Source: an uncultured Dorea sp. (GTDB lineage Bacteria; Bacillota; Clostridia; Lachnospirales; Lachnospiraceae). From it: DNA of 64,000 nt. This document shows positions 4,227 to 59,402 of the stretch, piece by piece. The stretch lies in assembly GCA_910580235.1 (NCBI GenBank), contig CAJTVU010000008.1, forward strand, positions 3,310-67,309, written 5' to 3'. The stretch's first letter is position 1, and every line of letters begins with the position of its first letter. The notes under the pieces are model-generated. The model was given only the letters and a program-made list of their open reading frames with translations. It did not search any database and was not told the DNA's origin. Made by a program: the position numbers and the translations under genes.

Positions 4227-4253
4227 CCTGTTTGTAAGAATAGATTGAAAGGG

Positions 4254-4286
4254 AGCCGTAAGCAATGATGCTTACGGCTTTTTTTG
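4254..4286 (+). terminator. Intrinsic terminator after the exporter operon
   Basis: Hairpin AGCCGTAAGCA..TGCTTACGGCT followed by TTTTTTTG. Confidence 0.8.
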
Positions 4287-21931: not shown

Positions 21932-23155
21932 TTAAATCATCCAAATCGGCACAATATAATTATCTCGATTAATTGCGCCAAGTTCTGGCTTCATGCAGAT
22001 AACAGCGCCTTTTGAACGAGGTGTTGATGATTTATCTAACAAGTCAAATATTTTTATTAGTTCTGTTCCGGGGTTGGAAGTCTTTTTAATCTCAATTGGG
22101 TTCAAAACTCCGTCATGTTCAAGTACGATGTCAATTTCCTTAGCATCCTTATTGCGATAATAGTATAAGTAAGGCTCTTTGCCAGAGTTCAAATAAGTCT
22201 TCATAATCTCAGCAACTACATAATTTTCTAAGATTGCCCCATTCATTGCGCCGCTTTCTAATGTTTCTGCATTGCTCCACTTTGTCAGATAACAAACTAA
22301 TCCTGTATCATAAAAATAAAGCTTAGGGGTTTTTACAAGGCGCTTCAACAAATTATTGGAATAAGGATGAAGGTAGAAAATGATTCCCAATGTCTCCAGG
22401 ATCCCTAACCAGTTCTTTGTCTGTGTCTGATTAATATCCGCATCCCTTGCGATATCCGCAACATTCAACATTTGACCGCACCTTGCCGCTACAGCAGTAA
22501 TAAATCTAAGAAATTTAAATGAATCAATGGCGTCTGACAGCTCTCTCACATCACGCTCAATATAGGTAGTCAGATAACTGCTATAGAAAATCTGGCTATT
22601 ACTGTTAGCTCCGCTTACAATTGCAGGCATGGATCCCCTATAGATCCGTTCAAAAATACCTCTTGCATCTGCCTGTTTCCTATTTGCCTTTCTGGCAGAT
22701 AATGCTTCTATGTCAAGTGTAAAAGGCTCCATCCCTCCGCCCGAAATTTCTGCCTGAGACAAAGAAGTAAGAGAAAGCGCGGCCACTCTTCCGGCTAAAG
22801 ATTCCCGTACGCCTTGCATCAGCTTAAACACTTGCGAACCTGTAAGCCAGAACGCCCCCGGCTCGTGATTTCTGTCTACATGAATCTTGATATAAGTAAA
22901 TAATTCCGGTGCATACTGAACCTCATCAATTAAGACAGGCGGCTTATGCAGCTGCAGAAATAGTTCAGGGTCTGTCTTTGCAATACTTCTTTCATTCAGG
23001 TCATCTAGAGTAACATACCCTCTATCCGTTCCTTCCATTAGCTTCTTAAGCATGGTAGTCTTACCCACCTGTCTTGGCCCAGTAACTAAGACTACAGGGT
23101 ATTCTTTTGTAACCTGGATTACTACACCCTCCAAATTTCTTATTATATAATTCAT
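21932..23155 (-). CDS. AAA-family ATPase with DUF4143-type C-terminal domain
   Basis: Walker A VTGPRQVGKTT, Walker B LIDEVQ, and the C-terminal region typical of AAA_14/DUF4143 proteins. Confidence 0.75.
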   Translation of the reverse strand: MNYIIRNLEGVVIQVTKEYPVVLVTGPRQVGKTTMLKKLMEGTDRGYVTLDDLNERSIAKTDPELFLQLHKPPVLIDEVQYAPELFTYIKIHVDRNHEPGAFWLTGSQVFKLMQGVRESLAGRVAALSLTSLSQAEISGGGMEPFTLDIEALSARKANRKQADARGIFERIYRGSMPAIVSGANSNSQIFYSSYLTTYIERDVRELSDAIDSFKFLRFITAVAARCGQMLNVADIARDADINQTQTKNWLGILETLGIIFYLHPYSNNLLKRLVKTPKLYFYDTGLVCYLTKWSNAETLESGAMNGAILENYVVAEIMKTYLNSGKEPYLYYYRNKDAKEIDIVLEHDGVLNPIEIKKTSNPGTELIKIFDLLDKSSTPRSKGAVICMKPELGAINRDNYIVPIWMI

Positions 23156-23328
23156 GTGCGCGTCCTTCTTTCGGCCAAATTATAATCTAATTATATTTTA
23201 GCCGAAACAAAGCAAGAAAACAAGCGCATTCCGGCTAATCTATATCTTATTTATATTTTAGCCGGAATGTGCTTGCTCTAGTCAATTTGAGATGGGGGAA
23301 AATCCACCGAAAGCGCACAAAGTGAATT

Positions 23329-23790
23329 TTACTCTATTCCAGATTGAAGGTGTTTGAGAAGAGCGTTGCAGCCCTCGACGACATCTTCATACGTCCGGTC
23401 GAAATTCCCGGTGTACCAGGGATCGGCGATCTCCCTCGGCTCTTCTGTGAAGTCCAGAAGGCTGTGGATCTTGCGATCCGGGTCTGCGCCCGCAATGCGG
23501 AGCATGTTGCGGATGTTCCACTGATCCATGCCGATGAGGTAATCATATTTTTGATAGTCTTTTTTCGTCATCTGTACGGCCCGGTGGGAGAGTACGGGGA
23601 CGCCTACCTCCTGCAGCTTGCGTATTGTGCCGTAATGGGGCGGATTTCCAATCTCTTCCCGGCTTGTGGCTGCAGAATCAATGTAGAAACGATCTGAAAG
23701 CCCCTTCTTATTAATCATGTCTTGAAAGACAAACTGTGCCATAGTCGAGCGGCAGATATTGCCGTGGCAGATGAATAGTATTTTAATCAT
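23329..23790 (-). CDS. Low-molecular-weight protein-tyrosine phosphatase
   Basis: P-loop CHGNICRS (CX5R-S) at the N-terminus and a DPWY general-acid loop. Confidence 0.9.
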   Translation of the reverse strand: MIKILFICHGNICRSTMAQFVFQDMINKKGLSDRFYIDSAATSREEIGNPPHYGTIRKLQEVGVPVLSHRAVQMTKKDYQKYDYLIGMDQWNIRNMLRIAGADPDRKIHSLLDFTEEPREIADPWYTGNFDRTYEDVVEGCNALLKHLQSGIE

Positions 23791-24064
23791 ATTGCCAGAA
23801 CCTTTGAAAATGCTGTATTTTCGGTGTTTCTACACATTTTCCTGTCCTTTCTGTTTCTTTATTTTCCTCATATCTTATCATAAATTATCATAATTTTGTG
23901 TGAATTTGAGGTAAAAAGTGAGGTAAATTCAAAATTTGTACCTCAAAGATAATTTTAATATGGTAAATTATACGCCTTTGTGATTTTTGCCTTTCCTGTT
24001 GGCTCTGGAGAGGATTTATGCTAAACCAACAACTAATATTGACAATATCATTTTGTCATGATGA

Positions 24065-25318
24065 TTACTTTATCACATACTTAGTACCCCTTCCTCTGCC
24101 TTCAATTTTCACAACACCTTTTTTACCCATCTCTTTCAGTAATTGTGTTGTCTTTGATTTACCAAACGGGGCGTAAGGGGCAATTTCGCTAATTGATTTC
24201 AGCATTGTCTTGCTTAAAATTTTATATATTTTTCTTTCGTCTTCCGTTAAATTCAGGTTTTTCTCAAAAACCGGAAGTACAATCTTAATTGTATTTTCCG
24301 ACACTTCAAAATCCGGCTGCTTCAATCCTTCTTCATAGAGCTGCTTTATCCGTGTAATTCCTGTACCGAATATTTCGACAAACCCCAGCCTGTAAAATAC
24401 ATTTGCAAGATTTCTATTTCTTAAGACTGAAAGTTTCCCCGATAAATACTCATCTTCCGTTATTCCAGAAGGCAGTCCTCCCGGAGAAATAATTTCTATT
24501 CTGTCGTCAAACATCGAAACTTTTATCTGTGATTCCACATCCCACACCCTATGAATCAGCGCGTTTGCGATTGCTTCTCTAAACGCGGCCTCCGGTATTT
24601 TTTCTACCTTTTTCCGCTCGGTGCCTTGTACTTCCTCGTATTGATAATAATCTTTAAATACTTCTGATACTTTTTCGTAGACTGTCAAAATGGATATATT
24701 ATCAAATGTTGCTCTCTTATGAATCACACTGATGCTCTCACCGAACCTCACCATATCAATTCCCGGAAAATGATTTTTATCCGCCAAAATGCCAGACGCA
24801 TTATTATATCCAGCGGTGCTGTTATATAAGTTCAGCGTTTTCAATGTGTCCTGATTAAAAGTTTCAATCTGAATACATTCTTTTAATTTTTGACATAGCG
24901 TATCAAATGTTAACTCTTGCTCTTCACACGGCAATTCTTCAAATTTGATATTTTTTCCTTCTAAAATCAATCTTGACAGCTCTAGTGTGTCAGCCTCTAT
25001 TGTTGCAGTATCATTTCGCTTGTATGCTTTCGATTTATATAAATATGGCTTTTGAAGCCCGCTTTTTACAGTCAGTTTTATCGTTCTGTCATTATTCTGC
25101 AATTCCAGTGTATAATCAGGCTGCGGAGTAATGCTGTCATTAATTTTATTTTCGATATCCAGACACGCTTGTTTTACATCCGACAGTCCTTTGATATTAC
25201 CATTGTCATCAATGCCAAAAAATATTTCTCCACCATCGTAATTCGAAAAGGCACTTACTGTTTTTAAAAATGTATTTGTAATCGTTTCTTTGAACTCTGT
25301 TGTTCTTGCTTCACGCAT
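24065..25318 (-). CDS. AlbA_2 (Schlafen-type) DNA-binding / HATPase_c_4-like / wHTH protein
   Basis: N-terminus TTEFKE..GGEIFFGIDDNG, central REAIANALIHRVW..ISPGGLP..RNRNLANVF, and a C-terminal wHTH. ATG 25318 was chosen over track start 25372. Confidence 0.7.
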   Translation of the reverse strand: MREARTTEFKETITNTFLKTVSAFSNYDGGEIFFGIDDNGNIKGLSDVKQACLDIENKINDSITPQPDYTLELQNNDRTIKLTVKSGLQKPYLYKSKAYKRNDTATIEADTLELSRLILEGKNIKFEELPCEEQELTFDTLCQKLKECIQIETFNQDTLKTLNLYNSTAGYNNASGILADKNHFPGIDMVRFGESISVIHKRATFDNISILTVYEKVSEVFKDYYQYEEVQGTERKKVEKIPEAAFREAIANALIHRVWDVESQIKVSMFDDRIEIISPGGLPSGITEDEYLSGKLSVLRNRNLANVFYRLGFVEIFGTGITRIKQLYEEGLKQPDFEVSENTIKIVLPVFEKNLNLTEDERKIYKILSKTMLKSISEIAPYAPFGKSKTTQLLKEMGKKGVVKIEGRGRGTKYVIK

Positions 25319-25375
25319 ACACTGCTCTCCCTTTCCAATTTTACTGTTTATATTATATGCAGAAATACGCAAAAA

Positions 25376-25412
25376 ATCAATCGTATTTTTTTGCGATCGA
25401 TTTTCTGAACGT
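25376..25412 (-). terminator. Intrinsic terminator of the 29634-25501 operon
   Basis: On the minus strand, hairpin AAATCGATCG..CGATTGATTT followed by TTTTTG. Confidence 0.55.
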
Positions 25413-25500
25413 TTTGGGTCATTAAGTTTTAAATTTCTGTCACATCAAGGCTCTTGCAGAAAATGGTGTAGTAGTGGTGTAGTAAATGTCTTTTCTCGCC

Positions 25501-26580
25501 TCAAAAGCTCTCTGGAACAAGCGCTAGTTTGTTAATCGACTCGTGAGCCCTGACAAGGGAGTCATAGACGGCCAGAACATCTTCGGAATCCCAGGTACGA
25601 AGGGACTTTTCATCAATAACGCCAGTGCTTTCACGTATGATCTTTGCGAGCTGTTCTTCGTCGGCGACAGCAACAACGGCCTGAACCGCAGCGTTGCTCT
25701 GTGCCTTTTTAAGGTTCAGGATAAGGCTATCTATAGAGCCCTTCGATTGTACCTCAAACACGTAGATCGCCTTACCCATATTACCGATCTTGGCTTCCCA
25801 AACGGCATCTACAACTGCGCCGGTGGTAATTTTAACTTCAGAACGACTGTTAAAGCCGAGAAGCTCGCCGATAGCAACCAATTTTTCCTTAATTTCATCG
25901 TGGAGGGATTTTGAATCATTTATGGTAACGGGGCTCTTAGATTCGGGAGCTGCAGGCGGTTCAGGCGATTTCTTTTCAGTGAGAGGTAAGATCTCGTCCC
26001 ACATAAAGTAATCTACTGCTAAAAGGTCATAATCTTCGGCACCGGCCTTTTTGAGCGCTGCGGCAATCTCTTTTGCAATTGTGCAAACCTCTGTATATTT
26101 CTTTCCTGTGTATTGGTAGTCATACTTTGGCATGCCGGGGATATCGAGATAACTGTAGCACAGGATCGTTGTCTTGTTAAAGATTACATACTCCTGTGGG
26201 TTGGCGTATGTAAGCAGCTCGCTCATTGTTGCAGGCCCCATACCTTTGATAGATTTCAAGAATACATCCCAACGCTTTTCAACAGGGCTTGTGCCGTAAA
26301 GCAATTCGGCCAATTGCTTTTTTAGTGCAGCAAAACCATTGTCGGCTATCAATTTATCGGCAACATACTTTTTATTGCCCCAAATAAGCATAGACCAAAG
26401 TTTGCTTATATACTCTAAGAATTCATCTTCGGTCATATCAATAAGCTTGTCCTTCGTAAATGACTGATAGTATTCCTTGCGCTCTTTGCGCTCAGCCCAA
26501 TTTTCTTCATAATAAGCGGCGTTTGTTTTTCTTTTCTTTGAAAATGCATTAATGGAATTCAATAATTTTGTATTGTTCAT
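25501..26580 (-). CDS. Hypothetical protein with HhH-like N-terminal half and PD-(D/E)XK-like C-terminal domain
   Basis: IKGMGPATMSELL is a helix-hairpin-helix-like GxG loop. The C-terminus VDAVW..VFEVQSKG fits D..E-x-K nuclease spacing. RBS AGGAGG is present, and the gene starts 30 nt after the upstream stop. Confidence 0.45.
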   Translation of the reverse strand: MNNTKLLNSINAFSKKRKTNAAYYEENWAERKERKEYYQSFTKDKLIDMTEDEFLEYISKLWSMLIWGNKKYVADKLIADNGFAALKKQLAELLYGTSPVEKRWDVFLKSIKGMGPATMSELLTYANPQEYVIFNKTTILCYSYLDIPGMPKYDYQYTGKKYTEVCTIAKEIAAALKKAGAEDYDLLAVDYFMWDEILPLTEKKSPEPPAAPESKSPVTINDSKSLHDEIKEKLVAIGELLGFNSRSEVKITTGAVVDAVWEAKIGNMGKAIYVFEVQSKGSIDSLILNLKKAQSNAAVQAVVAVADEEQLAKIIRESTGVIDEKSLRTWDSEDVLAVYDSLVRAHESINKLALVPESF

Positions 26581-26610
26581 GCAGAAACCTCCTGAAAAAA
26601 CTTTAATATT

Positions 26611-27573
26611 TTATCCTTTCCAATACCCAAGCTCTTCTAACAATCCCACGGCTTCCGGCTTATATTCTGCCCGGGCAGAGACATAGATCACTGTATCGGT
26701 GATACGGACTTTTGCCACATATAGCGTTTCGTTCTCTATGGAATACAATTCGTGAACCATTCCGCTGTATTCTTTAGTTTCTCCGTCCGATACAGGAAGA
26801 GTCATGCCGTTAAACAAGACACGGGCGCTGTCCGCTGTGTCCATAACAACAAAATCCATTCGGATATTGCCGTCATTAAATGAGACGGCTTCCTCAAGCA
26901 TTGAACCGACTTTCCAGTTCTGGCTCAATTCTTTCGTCGTATCGGAAGTTGTGTGCCCCGCATCCTCGACAACTTCTACAAAGTGATCTATTCCGATAGG
27001 GCGAATGCCTGGAAACAATTTCGTTGCTAAAGACATGCCGCCCAGGACAACCGAAACAGCTGCGATTCTAAAAACAATAGCTAATATAGGCTTCGGATTT
27101 GTCTTCTTCATTTCTTCAGGGCTCACATATTCTTCCGGTGGGAGGATCTCTTCCTCTTCCGGCTCCCCTCTTCTGCGTATCTTGTGGATCAAAGCCCAGG
27201 TTCCCGAAAGAAAGAATCCGATTGTGATAAATATTGCCCCAAAGCTAAGAAACACCATCAGATTATAAAGGCTGGGCGACAATATATCTGTGCAATTCTC
27301 TGGAGACTTTGGATCATACTTTATTTTGACCTGATCTCCAAGTCCCATTGGAGGGCTTCTGTTGTAAAGCTTGCCGGAATATTCATTTCCGTCTACTTCA
27401 TACTGATAGGTGATTTTATATCTGACGCTTCTATTGTGCCGGGAACGTGAGTATTCGCTGGATATATCAATACCCTCAGCGTACAAGGGGACATACGCCC
27501 TGAACCATGATATTTGAGCTGTTTCTATCTTTCTTTCGTGTCCTCGTTGTTTTCCAGTTCTTTGGCAATACAT
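26611..27573 (-). CDS. DUF3592-like membrane protein with extra C-terminal domain (start uncertain)
   Basis: Beta-rich block YKITYQYEVDGNEYSGKLY..GDQVKIKYDP followed by TM LMVFLSFGAIFITIGFFLSGTWALI. A second TM is ILAIVFRIAAVSVVLGGMSLA. No candidate start (27672, 27630, 27573, 27486) has an RBS, and the 5' end overlaps the upstream gene. Confidence 0.5.
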   Translation of the reverse strand: MYCQRTGKQRGHERKIETAQISWFRAYVPLYAEGIDISSEYSRSRHNRSVRYKITYQYEVDGNEYSGKLYNRSPPMGLGDQVKIKYDPKSPENCTDILSPSLYNLMVFLSFGAIFITIGFFLSGTWALIHKIRRRGEPEEEEILPPEEYVSPEEMKKTNPKPILAIVFRIAAVSVVLGGMSLATKLFPGIRPIGIDHFVEVVEDAGHTTSDTTKELSQNWKVGSMLEEAVSFNDGNIRMDFVVMDTADSARVLFNGMTLPVSDGETKEYSGMVHELYSIENETLYVAKVRITDTVIYVSARAEYKPEAVGLLEELGYWKG

Positions 27574-28247
27574 ATGCACAGGTTCGTATAACGCTCTATG
27601 GAATGCATTCCTTCTTCGATATGCTCCCATGATTTTTTGTAATCGCCGTTCACTGAAAAATCTGACTCGCACAGGAATTTGATAAACCCTTCCAGATTAT
27701 TTCTATACTTTCTGGCAAATGCATAAGAATTTTCCTCTTTGGCATCATCTGTGCTATTACGATTGTTATGTAGTACATGATCTAAGTTGCAGGACATGTA
27801 ATACACTCTATATGGTATGCTCCAAACTTGTCCATTGCTTTTCAGCCGATATAGGTTGTCCGTTTTTCGTTTGTTGCGCTCGATAATGCCTTGCGGATCG
27901 GACGTATGGATCCCATCAGATTCGTAAGAGATCCTGTCACATGTTAGATCATTGATAACATTTTCATCTGGAATGTATACACCGTCTGTATCGACAATGT
28001 GAATGATCTGCTTAAAATCTTTTGCTGTATAATGCTGTGATTTTGTAAATATACGCACTTCATTTCCAATCTTTGAAACGATATTTTGCGGGTTCACGCC
28101 ATTTCTGGCTGTAATATCGCCGTGCATAATATGGACATGCACCGAATCTTTATCATATATCTGATCCAACATGACGCCTAATGCCGTCTCATCGGAAGAC
28201 CCTTCTACAATGACAAGCACGATCTTCTTACGAGCCAAATGCCTCAC
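27525..28247 (-). CDS. TOPRIM-like protein (DUF4435/RloB/OLD-nuclease type)
   Basis: N-terminal KIVLVIVEGSSDE (conserved Glu strand) and IIHIVDTDG (DxD). The start overlaps the upstream ATPase by 20 nt. Confidence 0.6.
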   Translation of the reverse strand: MRHLARKKIVLVIVEGSSDETALGVMLDQIYDKDSVHVHIMHGDITARNGVNPQNIVSKIGNEVRIFTKSQHYTAKDFKQIIHIVDTDGVYIPDENVINDLTCDRISYESDGIHTSDPQGIIERNKRKTDNLYRLKSNGQVWSIPYRVYYMSCNLDHVLHNNRNSTDDAKEENSYAFARKYRNNLEGFIKFLCESDFSVNGDYKKSWEHIEEGMHSIERYTNLCICIAKELENNEDTKER

Positions 28248-29634
28248 CCGCCTCTCTGAACGCTAAAGCGATCTCAAAGTTATTCGTAGGATTATATACC
28301 TGTTCATTCTGCTCACCTAAAACAATATCGCGATAGTAGAAATCTCTTAAGTTATTATTCCCTTTTACATTCGTCAGCCGGATGTACCTGTTTGCCGGAT
28401 TCGTTGTTGTGAACGCAATGAATCCTTTGTCAATCGTTTCAAGTGGCCTAAGATTGTGTGATGTAAATATCAGTTGCCCTTTCCCTTTTTCGGAAATAAT
28501 ATTCAGGACTTCTCCAAGCAGATATTCAAAGATCCCCGAATCCAGCTCGTCAATTGCTACAGTGATAGATGGAGTGTTATATACTATAATGAGCAGCTGC
28601 AAGACAGATACGATTTTCTTGATACCTTCAGACTCATATCGAAACGGGATTGTTTTTCTGTTCTTTAGCGACACAAGCTGGATCGATCTTCCGGGATGCC
28701 CTTCTTTAGATACTACAGGCCCTAAATCTACAATACCGATTGTTAATCCAGGAACGAGCTGCTGCAGAACGATGTTCATGTTATTAATGATTTTTTCAAT
28801 AAGCGGCATAGCTTCTTCTGGGATTGGCGCGGGGATATTCAGCGGGAGCATTAGGTTTCCGACCGCTTCTTTATTGTTGTTTGTACATTTAAAGGATAAA
28901 GGCAATGCATTCATACTGATTAAGCCGGCATTTTCCGTATTAATAATAAAGAGCTCGCGATTACCGAATGCATATAATCCTTTTATGATATCCAGATATT
29001 TTCGGACCGTACAGTTTTCCTGGAAACGTTGGATCATTTCTCTGGAGAAAATAAAGGATCTTGATTGTTCCTGGGCCAGACGTTTTGTTACAAGTAATTC
29101 TGTAACATCATCTTTTGCTTTTCCCAGCAGTGCGTTATATTTTGACTTTGGGATAAATATGTCTGATGTCCTTGTATCTATAAGCGAGTTTTTCCGGATT
29201 TTTTCTTCTTTTGATGTATACCCAAAACTTAGCGCTTCATCAAAAATCTGCGCCTTGTACTTTAATTCAGAATCGGAAAGCCTATATTCATTGGAGTCTG
29301 GATCATCAATCACTTTCTTCAAAGAGAACTGGTACCAGATATCGTAGACAGCCTCATTTAATTGCATTTTGAACTGGAATTTAAGCAGGGAGCAGCTTTC
29401 TGCAATGCTAATATAGTCTGCATATTTTTCTGGAACAGCTTTGCCACATAAAACAAACTTGAGCAGTTGTAGCGCGTCGATTAGAGCAGTTTTCCCCGAG
29501 CCATTCTGCCCGTATAGGCCAACGATGCTTGCGCGATAATTCTTTCTTCGATTTTCAAGATCAAGCGTTCCCTTTTGCACATTTTTAAAATTCTCAATGG
29601 AAATGTTCTCTATCCTAATAAAACGCTTGCTCAT
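28228..29634 (-). CDS. ABC-type ATPase of the AAA_15/AAA_21 (OLD/AriA-like) class
   Basis: Walker A GQNGSGKTALIDAL, a long helical insertion, Walker B ITVAIDELDSGIFEYLL, and an H-loop LIFTSHN. ATG 29634 sits 5 nt after GGAGGT. Confidence 0.75.
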   Translation of the reverse strand: MSKRFIRIENISIENFKNVQKGTLDLENRRKNYRASIVGLYGQNGSGKTALIDALQLLKFVLCGKAVPEKYADYISIAESCSLLKFQFKMQLNEAVYDIWYQFSLKKVIDDPDSNEYRLSDSELKYKAQIFDEALSFGYTSKEEKIRKNSLIDTRTSDIFIPKSKYNALLGKAKDDVTELLVTKRLAQEQSRSFIFSREMIQRFQENCTVRKYLDIIKGLYAFGNRELFIINTENAGLISMNALPLSFKCTNNNKEAVGNLMLPLNIPAPIPEEAMPLIEKIINNMNIVLQQLVPGLTIGIVDLGPVVSKEGHPGRSIQLVSLKNRKTIPFRYESEGIKKIVSVLQLLIIVYNTPSITVAIDELDSGIFEYLLGEVLNIISEKGKGQLIFTSHNLRPLETIDKGFIAFTTTNPANRYIRLTNVKGNNNLRDFYYRDIVLGEQNEQVYNPTNNFEIALAFREAGEAFGS

Positions 29635-29943
29635 AATAACCTCCATAATTTCAATAAATAATCCAATATGTATGTTCTTGTTAATATTATACCATTATAT
29701 TGCTTAATATTTCAATATAAAAATATGATTTTGGAACTTTTTGTTCCGATTAACTGATTTGGTATAAATTATTTGTAATAGTTTGTATTTTGCTCATTTT
29801 TTCAAAAAGTATACCTACCCTCAGTGTACAAGGGGTCCCTCATTTTCTGAAAGGTTAATAAGTTAACAGGAGAATTGCTTGTTTTTCGTGGCAATATCTG
29901 ATATTATGTTCTCAGATTACTTTACGGAAAGGAAGTGCTTAAC

Positions 29944-33667: not shown

Positions 33668-33681
33668 TGCGGAGATATTCT

Positions 33682-33722
33682 GGCAGTCTTTTAGCCGTCG
33701 TAATCTCTAGCAAAAGACTGCG
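33682..33722 (+). terminator. Hairpin after the antiporter gene
   Basis: GCAGTCTTTT..AAAAGACTGC, a 10-bp stem with a weak U-tract. Confidence 0.45.
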
Positions 33723-33967
33723 GATAAACTGAGCAGTATTTATAGCCCCACCTTTTTAATTTTAGCATATTTTCAAATGCTATTTATATCATAAAGCGTA
33801 TCATGGTTCTGGATGGGAAGACGACATGAAAAAAATAATGGAAAAGAGGAGGATTGTATGATAATATGATAATATATAGAAACAGAGGCGACACACAGCT
33901 TGGACGTTCATTCTTCATTCATCATCAGTACATTTGTTTCTATCATTCATGAAGGAGAAGGAACTGT

Positions 33968-34453
33968 ATGGGCAGCAGGTTTACAGAAGGGTTTAAGGAA
34001 GAGAGTTGGTATAAGGAATTGTGTGAAGAGGGTCAGTATATCTGTGACCTTATCCATAAATATCATAAATATTTTAGTAGACAAGATAAGAAATACCGTC
34101 ATATTGTCAGGGTGTTTCATATACTTGTCTTATTATTTTCCATGATAAATACAATCGTGTTGGGAATGAAGACGATTATATCAGCGGATATCCAGATTGT
34201 GGCAGGGCTTATCTTGAGCGCGCTGGTAACGTTTGTTTCAGCTATCATGTCATATTTTAATTTTGAAGAATACTGGATGCGAAATATTACGACGCATATT
34301 GATCTCAATATTCTCAGAGACCGGTTCATTTTTGATGCAAAGTCTGGGAGATTTGACGATAGAAAGAAAATTCAGCAATATAAAGATGCCTTGGAAGAAT
34401 TGCAGAAGAAAAATATAAAGTATTGGAAAAAATCGCTGAAGAAAATCGGATAA
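33968..34453 (+). CDS. SLATT/DUF4231-like two-TM protein
   Basis: 161 aa. Cytosolic head, TM1 VRVFHILVLLFSMINTIVLGM, TM2 IVAGLILSALVTFVSAIMSYF, then a helical tail NFEEYWMRNITTHIDLNILRDRF. RBS GAAGGAGAAGGA precedes the start. Confidence 0.55.
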   Translation: MGSRFTEGFKEESWYKELCEEGQYICDLIHKYHKYFSRQDKKYRHIVRVFHILVLLFSMINTIVLGMKTIISADIQIVAGLILSALVTFVSAIMSYFNFEEYWMRNITTHIDLNILRDRFIFDAKSGRFDDRKKIQQYKDALEELQKKNIKYWKKSLKKIG

Positions 34454-34465
34454 AGGAGTATAGTC

Positions 34466-35431
34466 ATGGAAAAGGGAATTATTGAAAGTACAAGGGAGAA
34501 TTCTCAGAACATACTGAGCAAGATACGAGAACAATTAAGAGAAAGGTTTCCTTTAGAAAATGAGAAGTATAAGAATATTTGTGTTTATGCCTGCGGCTCT
34601 CTGGGAAGATTAGAAATGTCAGAGAATTCAGATTTAGATTTGTTTTTTGTCTCTTTGCATAATTGTGGAGAGGATCCTATGTGCCAGAACCTGAATAAAT
34701 ACAAGTTTTTTTCAAAACTATATGATATAAATTGTGCGATGGAATTTCCTGAACCCAGTAAATGTGGAGAGTACTGGGAATTCATTAATAAAGACGATTT
34801 TCTTGACATAGGAAGCAGGAAGGAAGACTTTAATAATAGTTTTACGGCTCGGCTTCTGTTCCTTTTGGAAAGTAAGCCAATTTATAATGAAGAAGCATTC
34901 GATTGGCTTTTGAAGGAGACGGTCTCAAAATATTTTACCGACTATGCAGACCACCGGGATGAATTTTACCCGTTATTTTTGATAAATGACATTCTGCGCT
35001 ATTGGTATACATTGACATTGAATTATGAATATAGAAGAGATGATGCGGATGATGTCCACAAGAAGAACTGGAAACGCCTGAAACTGAAATACGCCCGGTT
35101 ACTTACATGTTTTTCTATGATTGCATGTCTGTATCGTAGGAATATTACGAGCGAGTACGTGGTGGAATGCATAAAAATGACGCCTCTTGAACGTTTGGAT
35201 AAAGTGGCCTCGAAAAATACTGAGCTTAGAGGTATTGTGGAGAGCATTAAGAAAGAATATGAGTGGTTTCTTAATTTAAGGCAGACCAGAGACAATGGAT
35301 TTGATGAGAAGGAGAAGCGGGAAGAGGCCTTCCGGCATGCGGATAAATTTCATGAGCTTGTCTTGCATCAGTTGCTCAATCAAGTGTCGCAGGCAAATCC
35401 GCAGTTAAGGAAGAGGATGGATTTATTCTAA
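34466..35431 (+). CDS. Pol-beta superfamily nucleotidyltransferase with helical C-terminal domain
   Basis: CGSLGRLEMSENSDLDLFFV is a G-S..D-x-D catalytic signature (nt 34595..34639). The subfamily is unresolved: SMODS/CD-NTase-like versus GlnD/DUF294-like. Confidence 0.7.
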   Translation: MEKGIIESTRENSQNILSKIREQLRERFPLENEKYKNICVYACGSLGRLEMSENSDLDLFFVSLHNCGEDPMCQNLNKYKFFSKLYDINCAMEFPEPSKCGEYWEFINKDDFLDIGSRKEDFNNSFTARLLFLLESKPIYNEEAFDWLLKETVSKYFTDYADHRDEFYPLFLINDILRYWYTLTLNYEYRRDDADDVHKKNWKRLKLKYARLLTCFSMIACLYRRNITSEYVVECIKMTPLERLDKVASKNTELRGIVESIKKEYEWFLNLRQTRDNGFDEKEKREEAFRHADKFHELVLHQLLNQVSQANPQLRKRMDLF

Positions 35432-35450: not shown

Positions 35451-37694
35451 ATGAAGTATTTTGCGCTATTTTTAAATGAAAATAGTTTTATTGAAAAATG
35501 TATCTCGCTGATGAGGTTTATAAGCAATCCGTCTACAAAATCCAGGCCGCATATTACAGTGCGCCTTTTTAAGGAGTCAGATCCTAGAATGGAAGAATCT
35601 AGGAAGATGGAGGAATCCAGAAGGAGAGAGTTTACGTATCTTAATATTGTCTGTCCGGGAACTTTTAACTTTGAGAAAAAAAAACCGCCTTATGTAGTCT
35701 TTCTGCAGTGTGAGTCGGAAGAACTTGAAGATATAGAATATAAGCCTGATTTTCCTTATAGCAGACTTCATATTACGATTTACGAGGGGGACGATTACTC
35801 ATATGCAGAAAAGTTGTATCAGTTGCTATGCTCTTTTTCATGGCATTTCAAACTGCTTTTTGAAAGCCCGAGAAAACTGTTGGAGCAAAAGGTAGGGAGT
35901 AAAAGTTATGAGAGGCCGGATTTTCAGGCTATATTTGAGGAGATCATAGGAGAAGGCTATCAGGAATTCTTAAAGGATTATGACAAAGATATAGAAGTTC
36001 GGCTTAAGTTGATGAGAAGGCTGCTTCAAGAACTTAAGATTCATCTGGAAGAGGTTAAACCAGAAAAGATTCAGTCGGTTTATGAGAGTAGTTCCAGACT
36101 AAAAAGCGGTGGTCAAAAAAAAACTTATAGACAGATGAAAGATGGAGTCACCTTGCCCTTTTTGGATGAAGAACCTGTTACATTTCATAAACCTGTAACA
36201 GATGCCATTTATATTACACCTCCGGAATATGCAAGAGACATGGTGAAATGTGGTCTGGAGGCCATGGAAGAGAACCACGGGGAAATTGATTTCGGTGATT
36301 CTGCTATAGGGACAGGAACTCTATTTCTGGCACTTCGGCTTTGGATTGATGAAATAAACAGAACACATGGGAGTGGACATAACTATAGAATACGCTCTGC
36401 TATAGGAATTGATATTGACAGACAAATGGCGGATGAAGCTTCTATCCGTTGCCACAAAAGGGGCTTGAAAGTGATTTACGGTGATGCTCTTCTGCCTCAT
36501 ATGGATTTGGGGGAAAAACGCAATTTTATGGTAGTGAACCCACCGTTTAACCGTCATGGAGATATACCAAAAGAATATAGGGAGCTCTTGCATGACAGTG
36601 CAAAAGAGCAGACTGGAATAAGTATTGCAGGAAATGCAGGGCTATATGTGTACCATCTATTGATTATGGATAAATGGTTATGCGACGGTGGAGTGGCGGT
36701 ATGGCTTCTCCCAGCTGTCTTCATGCAGGTAAGGTATGGGGAGGCGGTCAGGCGTTATCTGCTGGATTGTGTGCAACTGATAAAAATCCATATTTACAAC
36801 GAAGAGGTAGAGCAGTTTGACAGTACAAATGTATCTACTGCTATCGTGGTTTTCAGGAAGGGAAAGACTGAGAGGGAAGACAAAGTGCAGGTTTCTTACG
36901 GGGCTTCTGTGGAACATCCGATAGATAGTAAGCGCATACTAAGAGAAGAACTTGTAAAAAACATGGACAACTGGAGAGTAGTATTAAAAGAAGAGGCGTC
37001 TTTTGGAGAGCATGGCAGTAAGATTACATTCGATGACTTGTTCGAAATAAAACGTGGCGTGGCTACAGGTGCGAATGATTTCTTTGTCATGACAAGAGAA
37101 AAAGCCAGAGAGTTCCATATTCCTGATATTGCTTTAAAGCCGCTGATCCCCAAGGCACGTTATTTGAAGTCTCTAGTGATAGAAGAAAGAGAAGATGGTT
37201 ATCCCGATGTAGAACCACAGTTGGTAATGATTGACTGTGCTTTAGACGAAGAGCGTATTCAAGAGATGTATCCGGGTTTCCATCGTTATCTGCAGTTGGC
37301 AAAAGTAAAAGAAGAGAATGGCGTCGCCGTTGTCGACAGATTTCTGGTGAGAAATAGGCATCCTTGGTACAGGCAGGAAAGAAGGGAACCGCCAGTTTTT
37401 CTTCTGACTTATATGGGTAGGAATAAGAAGAATCTGCCTCCTCTCTATTTTATATGGAACAAATCCCAGGCGGTTGCGTTGAACACGTATTTACTGCTAT
37501 ATCCCAGAAAAGGGCTGAAAGCTAGGCTGCGTGAGAATCCGGCTCTGCACGAGATAATATTGGATGCGCTCAATAAGTCTGCACAGGAAATGATGTCTTT
37601 CCGGGCAAGAGTCTATTCGGGCGGACTTAAGAAAGTTGAGCCAAATGAACTGCGTAGAATGCCGATTATAGGGCTAAATGAATTTTTGCAGTAA
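35451..37694 (+). CDS. Fusion protein: N-terminal 2H phosphoesterase-like domain plus gamma-class N6-adenine methyltransferase (Eco57I/TaqI-like)
   Basis: Two HxTx motifs with the expected context: RPHITV at aa 33-37 and RLHITI at aa 105-110, after an N-terminal YFALFL strand. SAM motif FGDSAIGTGTLF (nt about 36291..36329). Catalytic NPPF at nt 36537..36548. C-terminal FEIKRGVATGANDFF target-recognition-type block. Confidence 0.7.
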   Translation: MKYFALFLNENSFIEKCISLMRFISNPSTKSRPHITVRLFKESDPRMEESRKMEESRRREFTYLNIVCPGTFNFEKKKPPYVVFLQCESEELEDIEYKPDFPYSRLHITIYEGDDYSYAEKLYQLLCSFSWHFKLLFESPRKLLEQKVGSKSYERPDFQAIFEEIIGEGYQEFLKDYDKDIEVRLKLMRRLLQELKIHLEEVKPEKIQSVYESSSRLKSGGQKKTYRQMKDGVTLPFLDEEPVTFHKPVTDAIYITPPEYARDMVKCGLEAMEENHGEIDFGDSAIGTGTLFLALRLWIDEINRTHGSGHNYRIRSAIGIDIDRQMADEASIRCHKRGLKVIYGDALLPHMDLGEKRNFMVVNPPFNRHGDIPKEYRELLHDSAKEQTGISIAGNAGLYVYHLLIMDKWLCDGGVAVWLLPAVFMQVRYGEAVRRYLLDCVQLIKIHIYNEEVEQFDSTNVSTAIVVFRKGKTEREDKVQVSYGASVEHPIDSKRILREELVKNMDNWRVVLKEEASFGEHGSKITFDDLFEIKRGVATGANDFFVMTREKAREFHIPDIALKPLIPKARYLKSLVIEEREDGYPDVEPQLVMIDCALDEERIQEMYPGFHRYLQLAKVKEENGVAVVDRFLVRNRHPWYRQERREPPVFLLTYMGRNKKNLPPLYFIWNKSQAVALNTYLLLYPRKGLKARLRENPALHEIILDALNKSAQEMMSFRARVYSGGLKKVEPNELRRMPIIGLNEFLQ

Positions 37695-55411: not shown

Positions 55412-56435
55412 TTGTTCACTGACATTTTTTTGCAAACCTTGAGTTGGAAGATAGCAGAACTTTTTGAGGAATTTGTTACCATACTATTTGTTGACTGTAT
55501 TAATAATTATGCATCTATGGAGTATATACGTAGGGGATATCTTGAGGATTTCATTAGGGAGAGCAACAGTTCATTGATAGAAGAACTTAATGTACGCTCT
55601 TTGGAGGATTTATTGGTATCCGAGGAAGTGGCGGAGGAAAAGGATGACGGAATAGCAATCAAAAATATTGGACTGCTTATGTTTGGAGAAAGACTAGACA
55701 AATTGATTGCAGGAAGCAAGATTGAGTTGGTGCGTTTTCATGATATGGAAGCGGAGGCGTCTGATTTTACAGAGAAGACATTTTACGGTCCGATATGGAA
55801 GCAGGTAAGAGACGCGCCAGACCACATTAAGACAACTGTGGTTGAGGAAAAGGTGGTAAAGGTTGATGGAAGGGCAGAAGCAGACCGTTTTTTCAACTAT
55901 CCGTATAATGCGCTGGAGGAAGCGCTTGTAAATGCGGTTTTGCACAAGAATTATAAAGAGGATGTGCCGGTAGAGATTCGGATTTATTTGGATCAGATTC
56001 AGATTATCAATTTTCTGGAATTTTTCAAGGAAATTGATTTGTCTGAGAAGAAATCGACGGGCATATCGAAAATTTTGCGCGAACTAAAAAGAAATGGTTC
56101 GCCCATGCCAGAGTTTGAAACGGATGTGGACAGAACTTATACGATTGCTACAATAAGGATTCACGGAAGGTTTGAAACTGAGAGTACAAACTTCGCTCAA
56201 AAAGATGAGCGAAGTTTTGGCGCAAAAAGATTATAATAAAGTAAGTATAATTGTTAGTTTTATGGAAGAACATGGAGAAATCACTCCTAGAGAAGCCGAA
56301 GCGGTTACGGGAAAGTCTGCTGCGACAGTTCGGAGATATTTTAAAATGCTTACAGGTACAGGATATATAGTGGCAGAGGGGAGTACTAACAATATAGTTT
56401 ATCGTATTACTATTAATTTGTCAGAAGATGATTAA
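55412..56435 (+). pseudogene. Decayed AlbA_2/HATPase_c_4/wHTH gene, paralog of 24065..25318
   Basis: It lacks the AlbA_2 N-terminus and retains EEALVNAVLHKNY. There is an internal loss where the PGG..RN..GSGI blocks should be. A frameshift joins ORF 55412..56236 to 56172..56435, which carries the wHTH. Confidence 0.6.
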
Positions 56436-56535
56436 AATGGTGGGCCTATGGAGAAAAGAACCTGTTGACAAATTAAAGAAGCACGGCCTTCTGTATGGTA
56501 TAATTATTATATCAATTATAGGAGGTCGTTTTTTT

Positions 56536-57162
56536 ATGATTAACCTGTCTCTGGAGACGGGTCTCTGGAATCATGGAATCTATATCAATGTAATTAAAAT
56601 AGCAGTAGGGTTATTGATGATTGTGAATGTTCTAATAGGCTACATACCTCAGCCGGAGTATTTAGTTGAGCTGACTTGTGTATCAAATATGCTTGGCGGG
56701 CTGCTTTTGCTGACAGACGGAATACTTAATATCAGAAAAAAGAAGAATCTTCCTAACTCTTTTTATTTGAATGTTGCAGTAAGCATACTTACAGTATTCA
56801 TTGTCTGTATGGGAAGCTTTATTGGTGCATATAAATTTAATTTTAAAGGAGCATTTTTCTTTATGCATGTCATAAGTCCTATTGTTTTTATGATTTGCTA
56901 TATGCTTTTTGTGAATGAGCAAAGTCGTAAAATCAGGTTTGTGTTAACCGCACCGATAATGGTTATGCTGTACTTTCTATTTGACTACATACGTTCTCGG
57001 CTTGTAGGCGAATTTGTTTACGGTTTTGTTGAGCCTGGAGAGCTTTCGTTTTTTTATGTAATAATTACAGGGCTTGTAATGTACATTTTTATGTATTTGC
57101 TCGGTTTGAGCTTATTTGCCTTGAATCGGATTGTACATAAAAAGGCAATGGATAACGTATAA
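56536..57162 (+). CDS. Polytopic membrane protein, unknown family
   Basis: Five or six predicted TM helices. ATG 56536 is preceded by AGGAGG. The track start at 56428 has no RBS. Confidence 0.5.
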   Translation: MINLSLETGLWNHGIYINVIKIAVGLLMIVNVLIGYIPQPEYLVELTCVSNMLGGLLLLTDGILNIRKKKNLPNSFYLNVAVSILTVFIVCMGSFIGAYKFNFKGAFFFMHVISPIVFMICYMLFVNEQSRKIRFVLTAPIMVMLYFLFDYIRSRLVGEFVYGFVEPGELSFFYVIITGLVMYIFMYLLGLSLFALNRIVHKKAMDNV

Positions 57163-57303
57163 TTGGCAGATTTTTTTAAGAGGAACATAAGATATGGTAC
57201 CAGTTTAGCCCTAAAATTTTCCAGAGCAATAAAGAAAACTGTTTTTCGTGATAAAGATATGATAAAATAAAATGAGTATAAAACCGAAAGGGAGAGAGCG
57301 GAG

Positions 57304-58332
57304 ATGGGATTTGGCGATTTTATAAAAAATCAATTTTTAGATGTCATTGAATTTGTTGATGATTCTTCTGTCAAGATACTTGTAAGCAAATTTACAAGGC
57401 AAGGGGATGAGATTAAGCAAGGCGCTCAGCTTATTGTGAGAAATGGGCAAGCGGCTGTGTTTGTCCATAGAGGGCAGATTGCGGATGTATTCGGCCCTGG
57501 CAATTACAAACTAAATACCGAGAATCTACCATTGTTATCGGCATTGGCTGCATTCCCATATCTGCTTAATTCGCCAATAAAGTCAGATTTGTATTTTATT
57601 AACACCACACAGTTTATAAATAATCGTTGGGGGACAAAAAATCCAATACTTAAGAGAGATATGGAAATAGGAATAGTTAGGATTACTGCTTTTGGAAGCT
57701 TCGCTTTCCGTATTGCAGATCCTAAATGTTTTATGACAGAGGTATTTGGAGCAAGAAATTTAAATATGACACGCGACATTATTCAGTATTTAGTATCTTT
57801 TGTCGGAGAGGCGATAGCACAGTGCCTGGGAGAAAGTAATAAATCTGTGTTAGACCTGGCCACCAATTACCGACAGCTGTCATCGATGATCTTACCATAC
57901 ATAAACGAGAAGTCTCGACCGCTTGGAATCGATATCGTACAGGCCTCAATAGAAAATATTGGGCTGCCAAAAGAAGTTGAGAAGCTGATTGACGAACAAT
58001 CGGGTATTGGATTGGCAGCCAGAGATATGGATACGTTTATACAATATCAATCTGCGCGTGCTATACGAGATGCTGCACAACAGGAAGGTGGATTGGCAGG
58101 GCTGGGCGCTGGAGCCGTAGTCGGGGCAACTGTAGCTAAGAGTATGAATGAGAGCCTGGATAAGCCTTTAAGAGGGGAAGCAGACTTCAGTCAGGATGAT
58201 AATAAAGAAATCTTGCGGGCAGGCGATATTGCAGATAAAATTGCAAAATATAAGGAATTGTTAGATAATGGGGTTTTAACCCAGGAAGAGTACGATGAAG
58301 TTAAAACATTATTACTAAAGGAGATTTCATAA
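57304..58332 (+). CDS. SPFH/Band-7 domain protein with C-terminal SHOCT domain
   Basis: N-terminus FLDVIEF..GAQLIVRNGQAAVFV..G..ADVFGPG typical of YdjI-like SPFH proteins. C-terminal IAKYKELLDNGVLTQEEYDEVK is a SHOCT motif. Confidence 0.7.
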   Translation: MGFGDFIKNQFLDVIEFVDDSSVKILVSKFTRQGDEIKQGAQLIVRNGQAAVFVHRGQIADVFGPGNYKLNTENLPLLSALAAFPYLLNSPIKSDLYFINTTQFINNRWGTKNPILKRDMEIGIVRITAFGSFAFRIADPKCFMTEVFGARNLNMTRDIIQYLVSFVGEAIAQCLGESNKSVLDLATNYRQLSSMILPYINEKSRPLGIDIVQASIENIGLPKEVEKLIDEQSGIGLAARDMDTFIQYQSARAIRDAAQQEGGLAGLGAGAVVGATVAKSMNESLDKPLRGEADFSQDDNKEILRAGDIADKIAKYKELLDNGVLTQEEYDEVKTLLLKEIS

Positions 58333-59060
58333 TGGATACGGTTCAGGAATTAGAGAAGTGCAAACGTTTATTAGATGATGGCGCCATTAGCGATGAAGAA
58401 TTCCGAGTGATGAAACAGAAGATACTCGGGTTGAAGACAGATGCTGAAAAGGAACTTGAAAGACAAGAAGAACGGAGAAAGGCGCTTGCTGAAATCGAAA
58501 GAATGAGGGAAAAAGAAGAGCGCGCTCTTCAAGCAGAGAGAGAAAGAGAAGAAGCCAAACGGGCGCAGGAAGAAGCAGAGAGATCTCGTCTGCTTCAAGA
58601 GGAGAAGCGACGGAAAGAGGCCGAACAGCTGGCACAAATAGAGAAAGACCGGCAGATTAAATATCAGCAGGCTTTTGATGTAGAAAAAGCAAAGGAGTCG
58701 GCAAGGCTGGAGGCGGCACGCGAGTCGGAAAATAAAATACGTCAGGAAAAGTCAGAAAAGGTCCAGAATACTGCAAAGAAAGTATTTGTTGTTGTAAAAA
58801 CAATTATTTTATGGATTGTGACAGTCCTCCTCCTTCTTATAAGCATTGCTTCCTTTGAATCATCCATGACTTCCGGGCTTCCATATGTATTAGCAGGGAT
58901 AAATATGTTCTTGTTAGCTGTTATGGCTTGCCCATTGATTACAAAGAAAACAAAAGAGCTGCCTCAATTACAGCAATATTATAAGTATAAGAAGATTATT
59001 GTGATAGCGGTCGTTGTCTTGTTTCTTGCAATTGCAGCGTATGCAGGCAGTAAAATGTGA
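58332..59060 (+). CDS. SHOCT domain / charged coiled-coil / C-terminal membrane-anchored protein
   Basis: LEKCKRLLDDGAISDEEFRVMKQKIL (SHOCT), a long E/R/K-rich helix, and three C-terminal TM segments. The start overlaps the upstream stop (TAATG). Confidence 0.6.
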   Translation: MDTVQELEKCKRLLDDGAISDEEFRVMKQKILGLKTDAEKELERQEERRKALAEIERMREKEERALQAEREREEAKRAQEEAERSRLLQEEKRRKEAEQLAQIEKDRQIKYQQAFDVEKAKESARLEAARESENKIRQEKSEKVQNTAKKVFVVVKTIILWIVTVLLLLISIASFESSMTSGLPYVLAGINMFLLAVMACPLITKKTKELPQLQQYYKYKKIIVIAVVVLFLAIAAYAGSKM

Positions 59061-59165
59061 AAGGAGATGCGTGCAGCTCACAAAGTAAGTTCTTCGGAGC
59101 CTGTTTTCCTTTTTTTGTAAAAGTTTGGCGCATTTTCAAAAAATAAAATTTAATGATAAAACTAG

Positions 59166-59194
59166 TTGATAAATTTTGTCGGATTTGATATAAT
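59166..59194 (+). promoter_or_regulatory. Consensus-like orphan promoter upstream of vsr
   Basis: TTGATA, 17 nt, TATAAT. Confidence 0.5.
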
Positions 59195-59242
59195 TTCTAT
59201 GATAGTTATTTTACTCATCATAATTTATCATATCAGGGAGGG

Positions 59243-59274
59243 CAGGTTCTTCGGAACCTGTTTTCCCGTTTTTT
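59243..59274 (+). terminator. Intrinsic terminator about 50 nt after the orphan promoter
   Basis: CAGGTTC ttcg GAACCTG followed by TTTTCCCGTTTTTT. A degenerate copy lies at 59087..59117, after the SHOCT gene. Confidence 0.65.
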
Positions 59275-59402
59275 ACGTAAAGAAGACGAGAAATTAGATG
59301 CAGATAGTAGTTTGTATTGCCGGATAATTGAATAATCTGCGCTATTTTGGTAGAATAAAATATACTCCGGGGCATCCGGTAATAATTGCAGGTGAATGTC
59401 TA

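Follow-up and report, generated by a model that had tools for sequence, protein, structure and literature searches.

A conserved 2H phosphoesterase–DNA methyltransferase fusion, paired with a GlnE/DrrA-like nucleotidyltransferase in a Dorea gene cassette and putatively derived from XamI-type restriction–modification

Small operons in which a nucleotidyltransferase (NTase) of the pol-beta type accompanies a small membrane effector are known from guard systems with an inhibitory signal, Hailong (HalA channel and HalB NTase) and Panoptes, and for Hailong, as summarised in PMC13434031, experiments show that the NTase product can gate the membrane channel. Type III CRISPR systems, with cyclic oligoadenylates and ring nucleases, and CBASS systems with effectors of two transmembrane (TM) helices follow the same logic of writer, host-encoded eraser and effector that is proposed here; TM proteins of the SLATT and Csx27-like types are typically found there as accessory effectors and, more generally, typically act as effectors where defence relies on nucleotide signalling (PMC7159879, PMC9503650). 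BREX PglX and the type IIG/IIL enzymes, in turn, are N6-adenine methyltransferases (MTases) of the Eco57I family without a separate classical nuclease partner, in which the MTase with its recognition domain both modifies DNA and tells non-self from self. Here, we analyzed a stretch of 64,000 nucleotides (nt) from an uncultured Dorea sp. (contig CAJTVU010000008.1; referred to as the window), in which the open reading frame (ORF) 35451–37694 encodes a 747-amino-acid (aa) protein predicted to join a 2H phosphoesterase to a gamma-class N6-adenine DNA MTase. This 2H-MTase gene is the last of a three-gene cassette and is preceded by the genes for a SLATT protein and an NTase.

Hailong has neither a 2H eraser nor an MTase and uses a DNA ligand, whereas the NTase of the cassette is closer to GlnE and DrrA. 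In contrast to type III CRISPR and CBASS, the predicted writer of the cassette does not have the Cas10/CD-NTase fold, the eraser is of the 2H type instead of a CARF/ring nuclease, and the proposed sensor would be a DNA MTase where those systems use a crRNA complex or a CD-NTase regulator. The PADLOC profiles of PglX, type IIG enzymes and mad2 gave weak matches on the MTase core, but the partner genes of BREX or MADS are absent from the cassette, the 2H-MTase is much shorter, and its partners are an NTase, a 2H module and a SLATT protein. TUT1 (an NTase) and Usb1 (a 2H enzyme) form an antagonistic writer/eraser pair acting on an RNA 3′ tail, and rotavirus VP3 joins methyltransferase domains to a 2H 2′,5′-phosphodiesterase in one polypeptide. 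Their contexts, however, are eukaryotic or viral RNA processing or the counteraction of OAS, the VP3 MTases are RNA-cap enzymes, and only the 2H fold is common to them and the cassette. Among the models of PDC-M70, a candidate system of PADLOC, M70A is matched by the NTase of the cassette; the 2H-MTase and the SLATT protein match no other PDC-M70 model, and no paper mentioning PDC-M70 was found in the literature searched. The components of the cassette are of known kinds (R-M, i.e., restriction–modification, MTase, 2H esterase, SLATT, pol-beta NTase), and a related NTase is already listed as the candidate PDC-M70A. No description of the 2H-MTase fusion or of the three-gene cassette was found in the searchable literature, where an earlier computational mention is possible.

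The features of the cassette, as used below, are as follows:

33668–33967, forward strand: AT-rich leader of 300 bp, presumed promoter region, read from the sequence; start of the drop in GC content from ~0.49 to 0.35
33968–34453, forward strand: SLATT-family protein with two TM helices, 161 aa, predicted membrane effector (NCBIfam SLATT_1)
34466–35431, forward strand: GlnE/DrrA-like pol-beta NTase, 321 aa, predicted writer (motif, fold, PDC-M70A)
35451–37694, forward strand: 2H-MTase, 747 aa, last gene of the three-gene cassette
35451–35894, forward strand: 2H phosphoesterase module, predicted eraser, aa 1–148, with the HxT motifs HITV at 35550–35561 and HITI at 35769–35780
35589–35624, forward strand: diverged 18-nt in-frame repeat MEESRK/MEESRR in a variable loop of the 2H module, aa 47–58
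35895–36200, forward strand: helical tail (aa ~149–217) and low-confidence flexible linker (aa ~218–250), from the modelled secondary structure
36201–37694, forward strand: gamma-class N6-adenine DNA MTase with a C-terminal target-recognition region, aa 251–747, with motif I at 36291–36326 and NPPF at 36537–36548

A preliminary description of the reading frame, made from the letters alone, had proposed a 2H phosphoesterase placed N-terminally to a gamma-class N6-adenine MTase. This arrangement was borne out by invariant motifs, by the fold of an AlphaFold2 (AF2) model, by Foldseek searches and by the Pfam thresholds passed by the MTase half. All of the motifs named there were found in place: YFALFL (aa 3–8), HITV (aa 34–37), VVFLQCESEELEDI (aa 82–95) and HITI (aa 107–110) in the N-terminal part, and the S-adenosylmethionine-binding FGDSAIGTGTLF (aa 281–292) and NPPF (aa 363–366) in the C-terminal part. 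As judged from the preserved residues, the protein is a conserved fusion in which the 2H and MTase modules are both predicted to be catalytically intact.

In the alignment of 35 diverse N-terminal modules H34, T36, R38, S89, S104, H107, T109, Y111 and G113 were invariant, and both HxT motifs were present in nearly every full-length homologue. None of the tested Pfam 2H families (2H-SAK, LigT_PEase, 2_5_RNA_ligase2) passed its curated threshold. The 2H-SAK profile scored 13–16 bits on the N-terminus against a cut-off of 27 (13 bits, E = 0.11, for the Dorea protein), member-by-member scans gave sub-threshold matches of LigT_PEase in 9/35 and of 2_5_RNA_ligase2 in 4/35 modules, and the best standalone relative, with 25.8 bits against the 27 of 2H-SAK, still fell below. 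PDB sequence searches with the protein or with the N-terminal profile matched no 2H protein. Since all of these matches are sub-threshold, sequence profiles alone leave the 2H assignment insecure.

The fold gave a clearer picture. The AF2 model of aa 1–250, built on the alignment of the 35 N-terminal modules, reached a predicted local distance difference test score (pLDDT) of 85 and a predicted template-modelling score of 0.80. It comprised a compact domain (aa 1–148) with the HxT motifs lying on the beta-strands E34–37 and E106–113, a helical tail (aa ~158–217) and a disordered linker (aa 218–239, pLDDT <50). When the model was compared with the PDB by Foldseek, six of the top seven matches were 2H enzymes (probability up to 0.99, template-modelling score TMt 0.42–0.50), and the fold matches included B. 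subtilis YjcG, P. horikoshii PH0099, Arabidopsis CPDase, a Burkholderia phage phosphodiesterase, CNPase, Usb1 and ASCC1. At the top of the matches in the viral library stood 2′-5′ RNA-ligase-like proteins, Acb1 anti-CBASS phosphodiesterases and nidovirus 2′,5′-phosphodiesterases (PDEs); several Acb1 matches reached a probability of 0.99–1.0 and TMt of 0.50–0.54, all 2H fold matches lying between 0.42 and 0.57. The structural model and the matches in both libraries thus agree with the 2H fold foreseen in the preliminary description, and they point to a divergent but genuine 2H phosphoesterase. With the 2H superfamily (LigT/YjcG, plant CPDase, Usb1, phage Acb1; PF22547) the module shares two HxT motifs on beta-strands in a two-lobed alpha/beta fold, but it stays below all Pfam thresholds, carries a helical tail particular to its family, occurs fused to DNA MTases and is always partnered with a GlnE-like NTase. 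Substrates of 2H enzymes are 2′,3′-cyclic phosphates, 2′-5′ links, cyclic oligonucleotides and RNA 3′ tails, and to our knowledge all characterised members cleave a phosphodiester beside a ribose 2′-OH.

The small in-frame duplication reported at aa 47–58 proved real but unimportant. The two copies of the 18-nt unit are identical at 13/18 positions, and the 6-aa insertion that they form is confined to this lineage and lies in a poorly conserved loop (pLDDT ~59 in the AF2 model). A recent tandem duplication as a meaningful feature was hence rejected, and the repeat is incidental.

The MTase half passed the Pfam thresholds of N6_Mtase (aa 256–519; 36.8 bits, cut-off 20.4) and Eco57I (28.9 bits, cut-off 25.3), and the PADLOC type II MTase model MTase_II matched aa 251–742 at 8.5e-82. 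FGDSAIGTG (aa 281–289) precedes NPPF and the recognition domain is C-terminal, which is the motif order of the gamma class. F281, G287, G289, N363, P364 and P365 were invariant even when unfused relatives were included, and within the fused family the whole of F281-G282-D283..G287-x-G289 and N363-P364-P365 was invariant. The nearest solved structure by sequence was M.BseCI (7qw5, 3e-22).

Relatives of the MTase half were found in each collection searched (>500 in each), most of them unfused, and aa ~254–738 are 35–42 % identical over the full length, recognition region included, to these abundant standalone MTases. The unfused MTase genes have, as a rule directly upstream and on the same strand, a conserved gene of ~318 aa, identified as the XamI restriction endonuclease (REase; PF09572, 9e-102). 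This gene was present in 110 of 129 unfused loci, or in 93/105 where the upstream sequence suffices, and the NTase in none of the 129. Conversely, the XamI REase was found in 0/36 fused loci, and a hidden restriction enzyme was rejected, as tblastn with the XamI REase detected nothing in the window or in the fused loci. The earlier statements that no restriction nuclease is encoded nearby and that the gene is not an ordinary R-M component are in line with this: a cognate nuclease is missing and an NTase lies upstream instead. The two upstream genes co-transcribed with the 2H-MTase gene, those for the SLATT protein and the NTase, had been overlooked there.

In a neighbour-joining (NJ) tree of the MTase region, computed for 37 fused proteins, two MTase-only genes and 43 XamI-linked MTases, the fused proteins and the MTase-only genes of the loci L012 and L101 formed one clan against the XamI-linked MTases (bootstrap 60/60). 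The NJ clan and the locus counts together point to a single fusion event within a family of ordinary R-M MTases, in which the NTase came to stand where the REase had been. By its sequence relationships the MTase descends from XamI-type type II R-M methyltransferases. It shares with the XamI/SalI-type enzymes the motif order, NPP[FY] and FxGxG, and the arrangement of partner gene followed by MTase on one strand; the fused family differs in having no REase, an N-terminal 2H module with tail of ~250 aa, an NTase upstream and a clade of its own. The two MTase-only genes (L012 3173–4552, L101 1531–2802) nest in the fused clade without 2H, NTase or XamI REase and look like remnants of decayed cassettes. 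The sequence GTCGAC (XamI/SalI site) occurs six times in the window, once within the 2H-MTase gene near 37323–37338.

The 2H module, fused or standalone, sits beside one GlnE/DrrA-like NTase family in all evaluable loci. The NTase adjoins the 2H-MTase in 34/34 fused loci with upstream sequence (30 co-directional, 4 divergent). When the 2H domain by itself was used in an exhaustive profile search, 517 representatives of 50 %-identity clusters were returned (266 at E <= 1e-10). They fell into two size classes, fusions of ~700–770 aa and many standalone proteins of ~190–250 aa that share the HxT motifs and the helical tail. Three standalone 2H proteins, followed to six loci, were all encoded directly behind a gene of ~320 aa (6/6); at three of the loci, one per protein, this gene was confirmed as a member of the same NTase family (38–43 % identity, profile E down to 4e-99), and no MTase was annotated near any of the six. 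The reading frames of such dyads touch or overlap (L166, 5015–5998 and 6001–6624; L169, 5051–6004 and 6001–6609). The same 2H module with its tail was also found on an MmeI/Eco57I-type N6-adenine MTase (P0316, 1235 aa), which by its sequence would be an independent second 2H-MTase fusion. As the standalone 2H protein adjoins the NTase and MTases appear fused to 2H at least twice, the conserved functional unit would be the NTase–2H dyad. The SLATT/NTase operon and the invariable pairing likewise suggest that the 2H module is part of a writer/eraser dyad, not a free-standing RNA-end enzyme. Two loci (L011 5205–6691 and L104 711–2162, both on the minus strand) carry a divergent NTase and then a separate small 2H-SAK protein (PF22547, 6e-19), so that each has two 2H domains; this protein shares the second-lobe signature C[ED]SxxL...PxxxxHIT[IL] with the fused module.

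The fusion is old and widespread. A protein search returned 118 homologues, of which ~100 were full length (~730–770 aa), with 40–70 % identity, and scans of species-representative genomes, metagenomes and viral contigs gave the 36 fused loci, in at least six phyla (Bacillota, Acidobacteriota, Chloroflexota, Bacteroidota, Proteobacteria, represented by a Duganella of the Betaproteobacteria, and Verrucomicrobiota). Regional conservation, expressed as the mean pairwise identity across 96 full-length proteins, was 0.55–0.60 in the 2H lobes, 0.55 in the catalytic core of the MTase, 0.64 in the recognition region and C-terminus and 0.20–0.25 in the tail, the linker and the MEESRK-repeat loop. Conservation of the 2H lobes thus equals that of the MTase core. 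At the level of the species, the gene flanking the cassette, coding for a Na/Ca exchanger, is indexed in identical form in 142 blocks of the assembly collection; all 23 contigs with this identical gene carried the same arrangement with the intact 747-aa ORF, and no empty-site strain was found among them. A strain-specific fusion or a recent frame-fusing deletion, raised in the preliminary description as a possible refutation, was therefore ruled out by the spread of homologues, the fused loci, the tree with its single clan and the 23 contigs. An apparent triple fusion of NTase, 2H and MTase (P0110; L084 6001–9174, 1057 aa) was rejected as a frameshifted read-through of two adjacent genes; the coverage of that contig is 1.07x, and the C-terminus of the NTase continues in frame 2 at 6749–7000.

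One near-identical strain or metagenome-assembled genome (MAG) deviated from this picture. In locus L085 (GCA_949462345.1) a 140-nt deletion between two GTATCT microhomologies (4040–4260, corresponding to window positions 35501–35640) removes codons ~17–63 with the first HxT (His34) and shifts the frame, with the SLATT and NTase genes intact; the NCBI annotation starts a 692-aa protein at an internal ATG. Loss of the 2H-MTase is tolerated in this single, anecdotal case.

The SLATT, NTase and 2H-MTase genes lie on the same strand and are tightly packed, with gaps of 12 and 19 nt, and their GC content of 0.35–0.41 is set against ~0.49 in the flanks; the other neighbouring ORFs code for a DnaJ-domain protein and DUF5685. 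In the leader, a consensus promoter scan did not rise above shuffled sequences, and the search for a riboswitch or RNA element gave Rfam matches at chance level, none of them credible. The first gene was assigned by NCBIfam SLATT_1 (7e-18, 64.8 bits, cut-off 41) and Pfam DUF4231 (3e-6), and its product has two hydrophobic helices at about aa 45–99. SLATT was found upstream of the NTase in all 12 Bacillota-type fused loci. In a Terriglobia and a Verrucomicrobiia locus (L013 4957–5598, L014 9265–9903) SLATT is replaced by homologous multi-TM proteins of 212–213 aa, 44 % identical and weakly similar to Csx27 and PDC-M48A, whose genes directly follow the 2H-MTase gene. A PDC-M50A-like protein of 170 aa is encoded at 5893–6405 of L013 as well.

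In the NTase, the motif G44-S45..R48..D56-x-D58 was invariant, and the AF2 model reached a pLDDT of 92. The top Foldseek match was the AMPylation domain of Legionella DrrA (4e-4), both NTase domains of GlnE matched with a probability of 0.99–1.0, and ANT and MntA followed at lower rank, as did Hailong HalB, with a probability of 0.6–0.85 and TMt of ~0.3. The DrrA motif matched at 7e-4 and Pfam GlnE stayed sub-threshold (21.4 against 24). PDC-M70A matched over the full length (8.6e-25; 3e-23 and 6e-21 for distant members of the family). Neither CD-NTases nor OAS appeared among the top 50 fold matches, and no PADLOC CBASS cyclase model matched. No sensor domain is obvious in the NTase, which gave >1300 matches in a database of 90 %-identity clusters.

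From its sequence setting the cassette was probably acquired horizontally and would be of the conflict type, most likely anti-phage. Homologous loci lie beside transposases and other sporadic genes. A TIGR04141/DUF6119 protein described as sporadically distributed is encoded directly upstream of the cassette in L003 (3756–5321), with IS21-type genes downstream, and a transposase and a toxin–antitoxin pair lie near the cassette in L001; such variable neighbourhoods are typical of accessory islands. In the Dorea window, the cassette lies in the chromosome between housekeeping-type genes. No match to the fusion was found in 50,697 phage genomes, plasmids carried the unfused MTase only, and one of 2.9 million viral contigs (IMG/VR, L081) carried the fusion, with the full SLATT–NTase cassette.

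Two further stretches of low GC content were noted in the window. The one at 21932–29646 (minus strand, GC 0.36–0.44) looks like another defence-type island; it codes for an AAA_14/DUF4143 ATPase, a protein with Schlafen AlbA_2, HATPase_c_4 and winged helix-turn-helix domains, a DUF3592 protein, an AAA_15/AAA_21 (OLD/AbiEii-like) ATPase and one ORF with no Pfam match. The other, at 55412–60212 (plus strand, GC 0.35–0.44), lies just downstream of rpsL-rpsG-fusA-tuf and carries a gene for an SPFH/Band7 and SHOCT protein (57304–58332), one for a partial HATPase_c_4 protein and several ORFs with no Pfam match.

Tentatively, and with a confidence a little short of even, we favour the reading of the cassette as a derivative of an R-M system in which the nuclease arm has been replaced by an NTase writer, a 2H eraser and, in Bacillota, a SLATT pore acting as reader. 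The NTase would write a ribonucleotide-containing product, either a signalling oligonucleotide or a tail primed by protein or RNA, and the 2H domain would erase it by cleavage beside a ribose 2′-OH; such a product, removed by the 2H enzyme, is the simplest assumption because the NTase is always paired with a 2H enzyme. SLATT, where present, would read the product and permeabilise the membrane. The MTase may methylate a fixed motif in the host DNA and, being joined to the eraser and probably in a complex with the writer, may report whether DNA is methylated (self) or unmethylated (invader), so that the restriction arm would consist of nucleotide signalling and abortive infection instead of DNA cleavage. 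The descent of the MTase from R-M enzymes, with an NTase standing where the REase was, suggests that self is still marked by methylation and that the MTase with its target-recognition domain (TRD), tethered to the eraser, reports the methylation state. Among the functions offered in the preliminary description, signal degradation coupled with self-marking fits this context best, whereas modification of RNA or of a nucleotide is unlikely because the MTase half, with its recognition region, so closely follows the XamI-type DNA R-M MTases and has M.BseCI as its nearest solved relative. As to polarity, an activating signal with the 2H domain as a host off-switch, analogous to ring nucleases, is preferred because type III CRISPR offers known examples of erasers encoded by the host; taken by itself this polarity is possible but doubtful. 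That the cassette stands for an undescribed R-M-derived immune class, in which DNA self-marking is wired to nucleotide signalling and unmethylated invader DNA leads to nuclease-free abortive infection, seems to us on balance unlikely.

Several observations weigh against the favoured reading. By fold, the NTase comes nearest to GlnE and DrrA, which AMPylate proteins, and not to the known signal synthases CD-NTase, OAS and Cas10. No conserved extra neighbours were found in the non-Bacillota fused loci, most of which have no membrane effector, and the standalone NTase–2H dyads have neither a membrane effector nor any other conserved neighbour, so the conserved core comprises two genes. The presence of the cassette in 23/23 contigs indicates fixation in the species, with no visible mobility. 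Conservation within the fusion family is highest in the presumed target-recognition region (aa 531–660, 37053–37430), whereas in R-M arms races the specificities typically diversify; this suggests that a single DNA specificity is shared across the family. Finally, a link between the methylation state of DNA and the activity of the 2H domain or the NTase is something that we purely infer.

The bare dyads and the NTase fold would be accommodated if the pair were a toxin–antitoxin-like writer and eraser acting on a macromolecule. The NTase would attach nucleotides to a protein, to DNA or to the 3′ end of an RNA, and the 2H enzyme would trim them off; the MTase fusion would then only tether the eraser to DNA or add an orphan epigenetic function. 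A self-contained two-gene unit with touching or overlapping frames does exist without MTase or pore, the NTase is nearest to the macromolecule-modifying DrrA, GlnE, MntA and ANT, Usb1 is among the fold matches of the 2H module, and TUT1/Usb1 on U6 snRNA and DarT/DarG on DNA are comparable writer/eraser pairs. We nevertheless consider this explanation improbable. L085 has lost the first 2H lobe with His34 and keeps an intact NTase, a state that a cell with a constitutively toxic NTase should not survive (a single MAG case). The explanation does not account for the recurrent presence of SLATT or other TM proteins or for the two independent events that joined the module to DNA MTases, and 2H enzymes are not known to us to reverse Tyr-AMP adducts. 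The same deletion would be expected from a guard of the Hailong kind, in which an oligonucleotide made constitutively by the NTase holds the SLATT pore shut and the MTase/TRD, on meeting unmethylated invader DNA, switches the 2H domain on, so that the ligand is destroyed and the pore opens; loss of the trigger would then be harmless. Such a guard has a precedent in Hailong, a pair of NTase and TM channel that has been characterised by experiment and uses an inhibitory oligonucleotide (PMC13434031), and it is in keeping with HalB among the fold matches and with an NTase that has no obvious sensor domain. The resemblance to HalB is weak, however, the Hailong ligand is DNA (oligo-dA), an unlikely substrate for a chemistry that needs the ribose 2′-OH, and the pore-less dyads are left unexplained. 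Moreover, we know of no described inhibitory-signal system that carries a host-encoded eraser, and the guard appears still less probable than the toxin–antitoxin-like pair.

Two simpler explanations were given very little weight. The sub-threshold 2H profile matches and the PDB sequence searches that returned no 2H protein would suit an ordinary orphan or R-M MTase with an inert N-terminal extension, vestigial or accidental 2H motifs and unrelated neighbours. Against this, both HxT motifs and further residues are invariant across phyla, the 2H lobes are conserved to the degree of the MTase core, the confident model has 2H enzymes as top matches in two libraries, and the NTase is adjacent in every evaluable fused locus and in no unfused one, which makes the explanation hardly credible. 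Equally remote is a phage or plasmid anti-defence protein whose 2H domain would degrade host immune signals in the manner of Acb1 and whose MTase would shield the DNA of the element. Acb1 is among the best viral fold matches and one IMG/VR contig does carry the cassette, but that sole contig has the SLATT–NTase genes complete, the phage genomes gave no match, the plasmids gave only the unfused MTase, and the cassette is chromosomal, between housekeeping-type genes, and fixed in the species.

If the favoured R-M-derived reading is true, the cassette would join two subjects that are usually treated apart, methylation-based self/non-self discrimination and second-messenger or oligonucleotide signalling with membrane effectors, and would mark out an evolutionary route by which an R-M system loses its nuclease and gains a signalling arm. 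As the same 2H module is fused to two MTase lineages and always accompanied by one NTase family, the NTase–2H pair may be a general modular dyad that can be plugged into different sensors, and a function would be assigned to a widespread unannotated pair of a GlnE-like NTase and its dedicated 2H partner. Signal erasers of the 2H type have so far been known mainly from viral counter-defence (Acb1, the nidovirus and rotavirus PDEs), and a host-encoded 2H enzyme would join the known erasers. For the apparently common Bacillota species in which the cassette is fixed, a species-wide N6-methyladenine motif that has no cognate nuclease is predicted.

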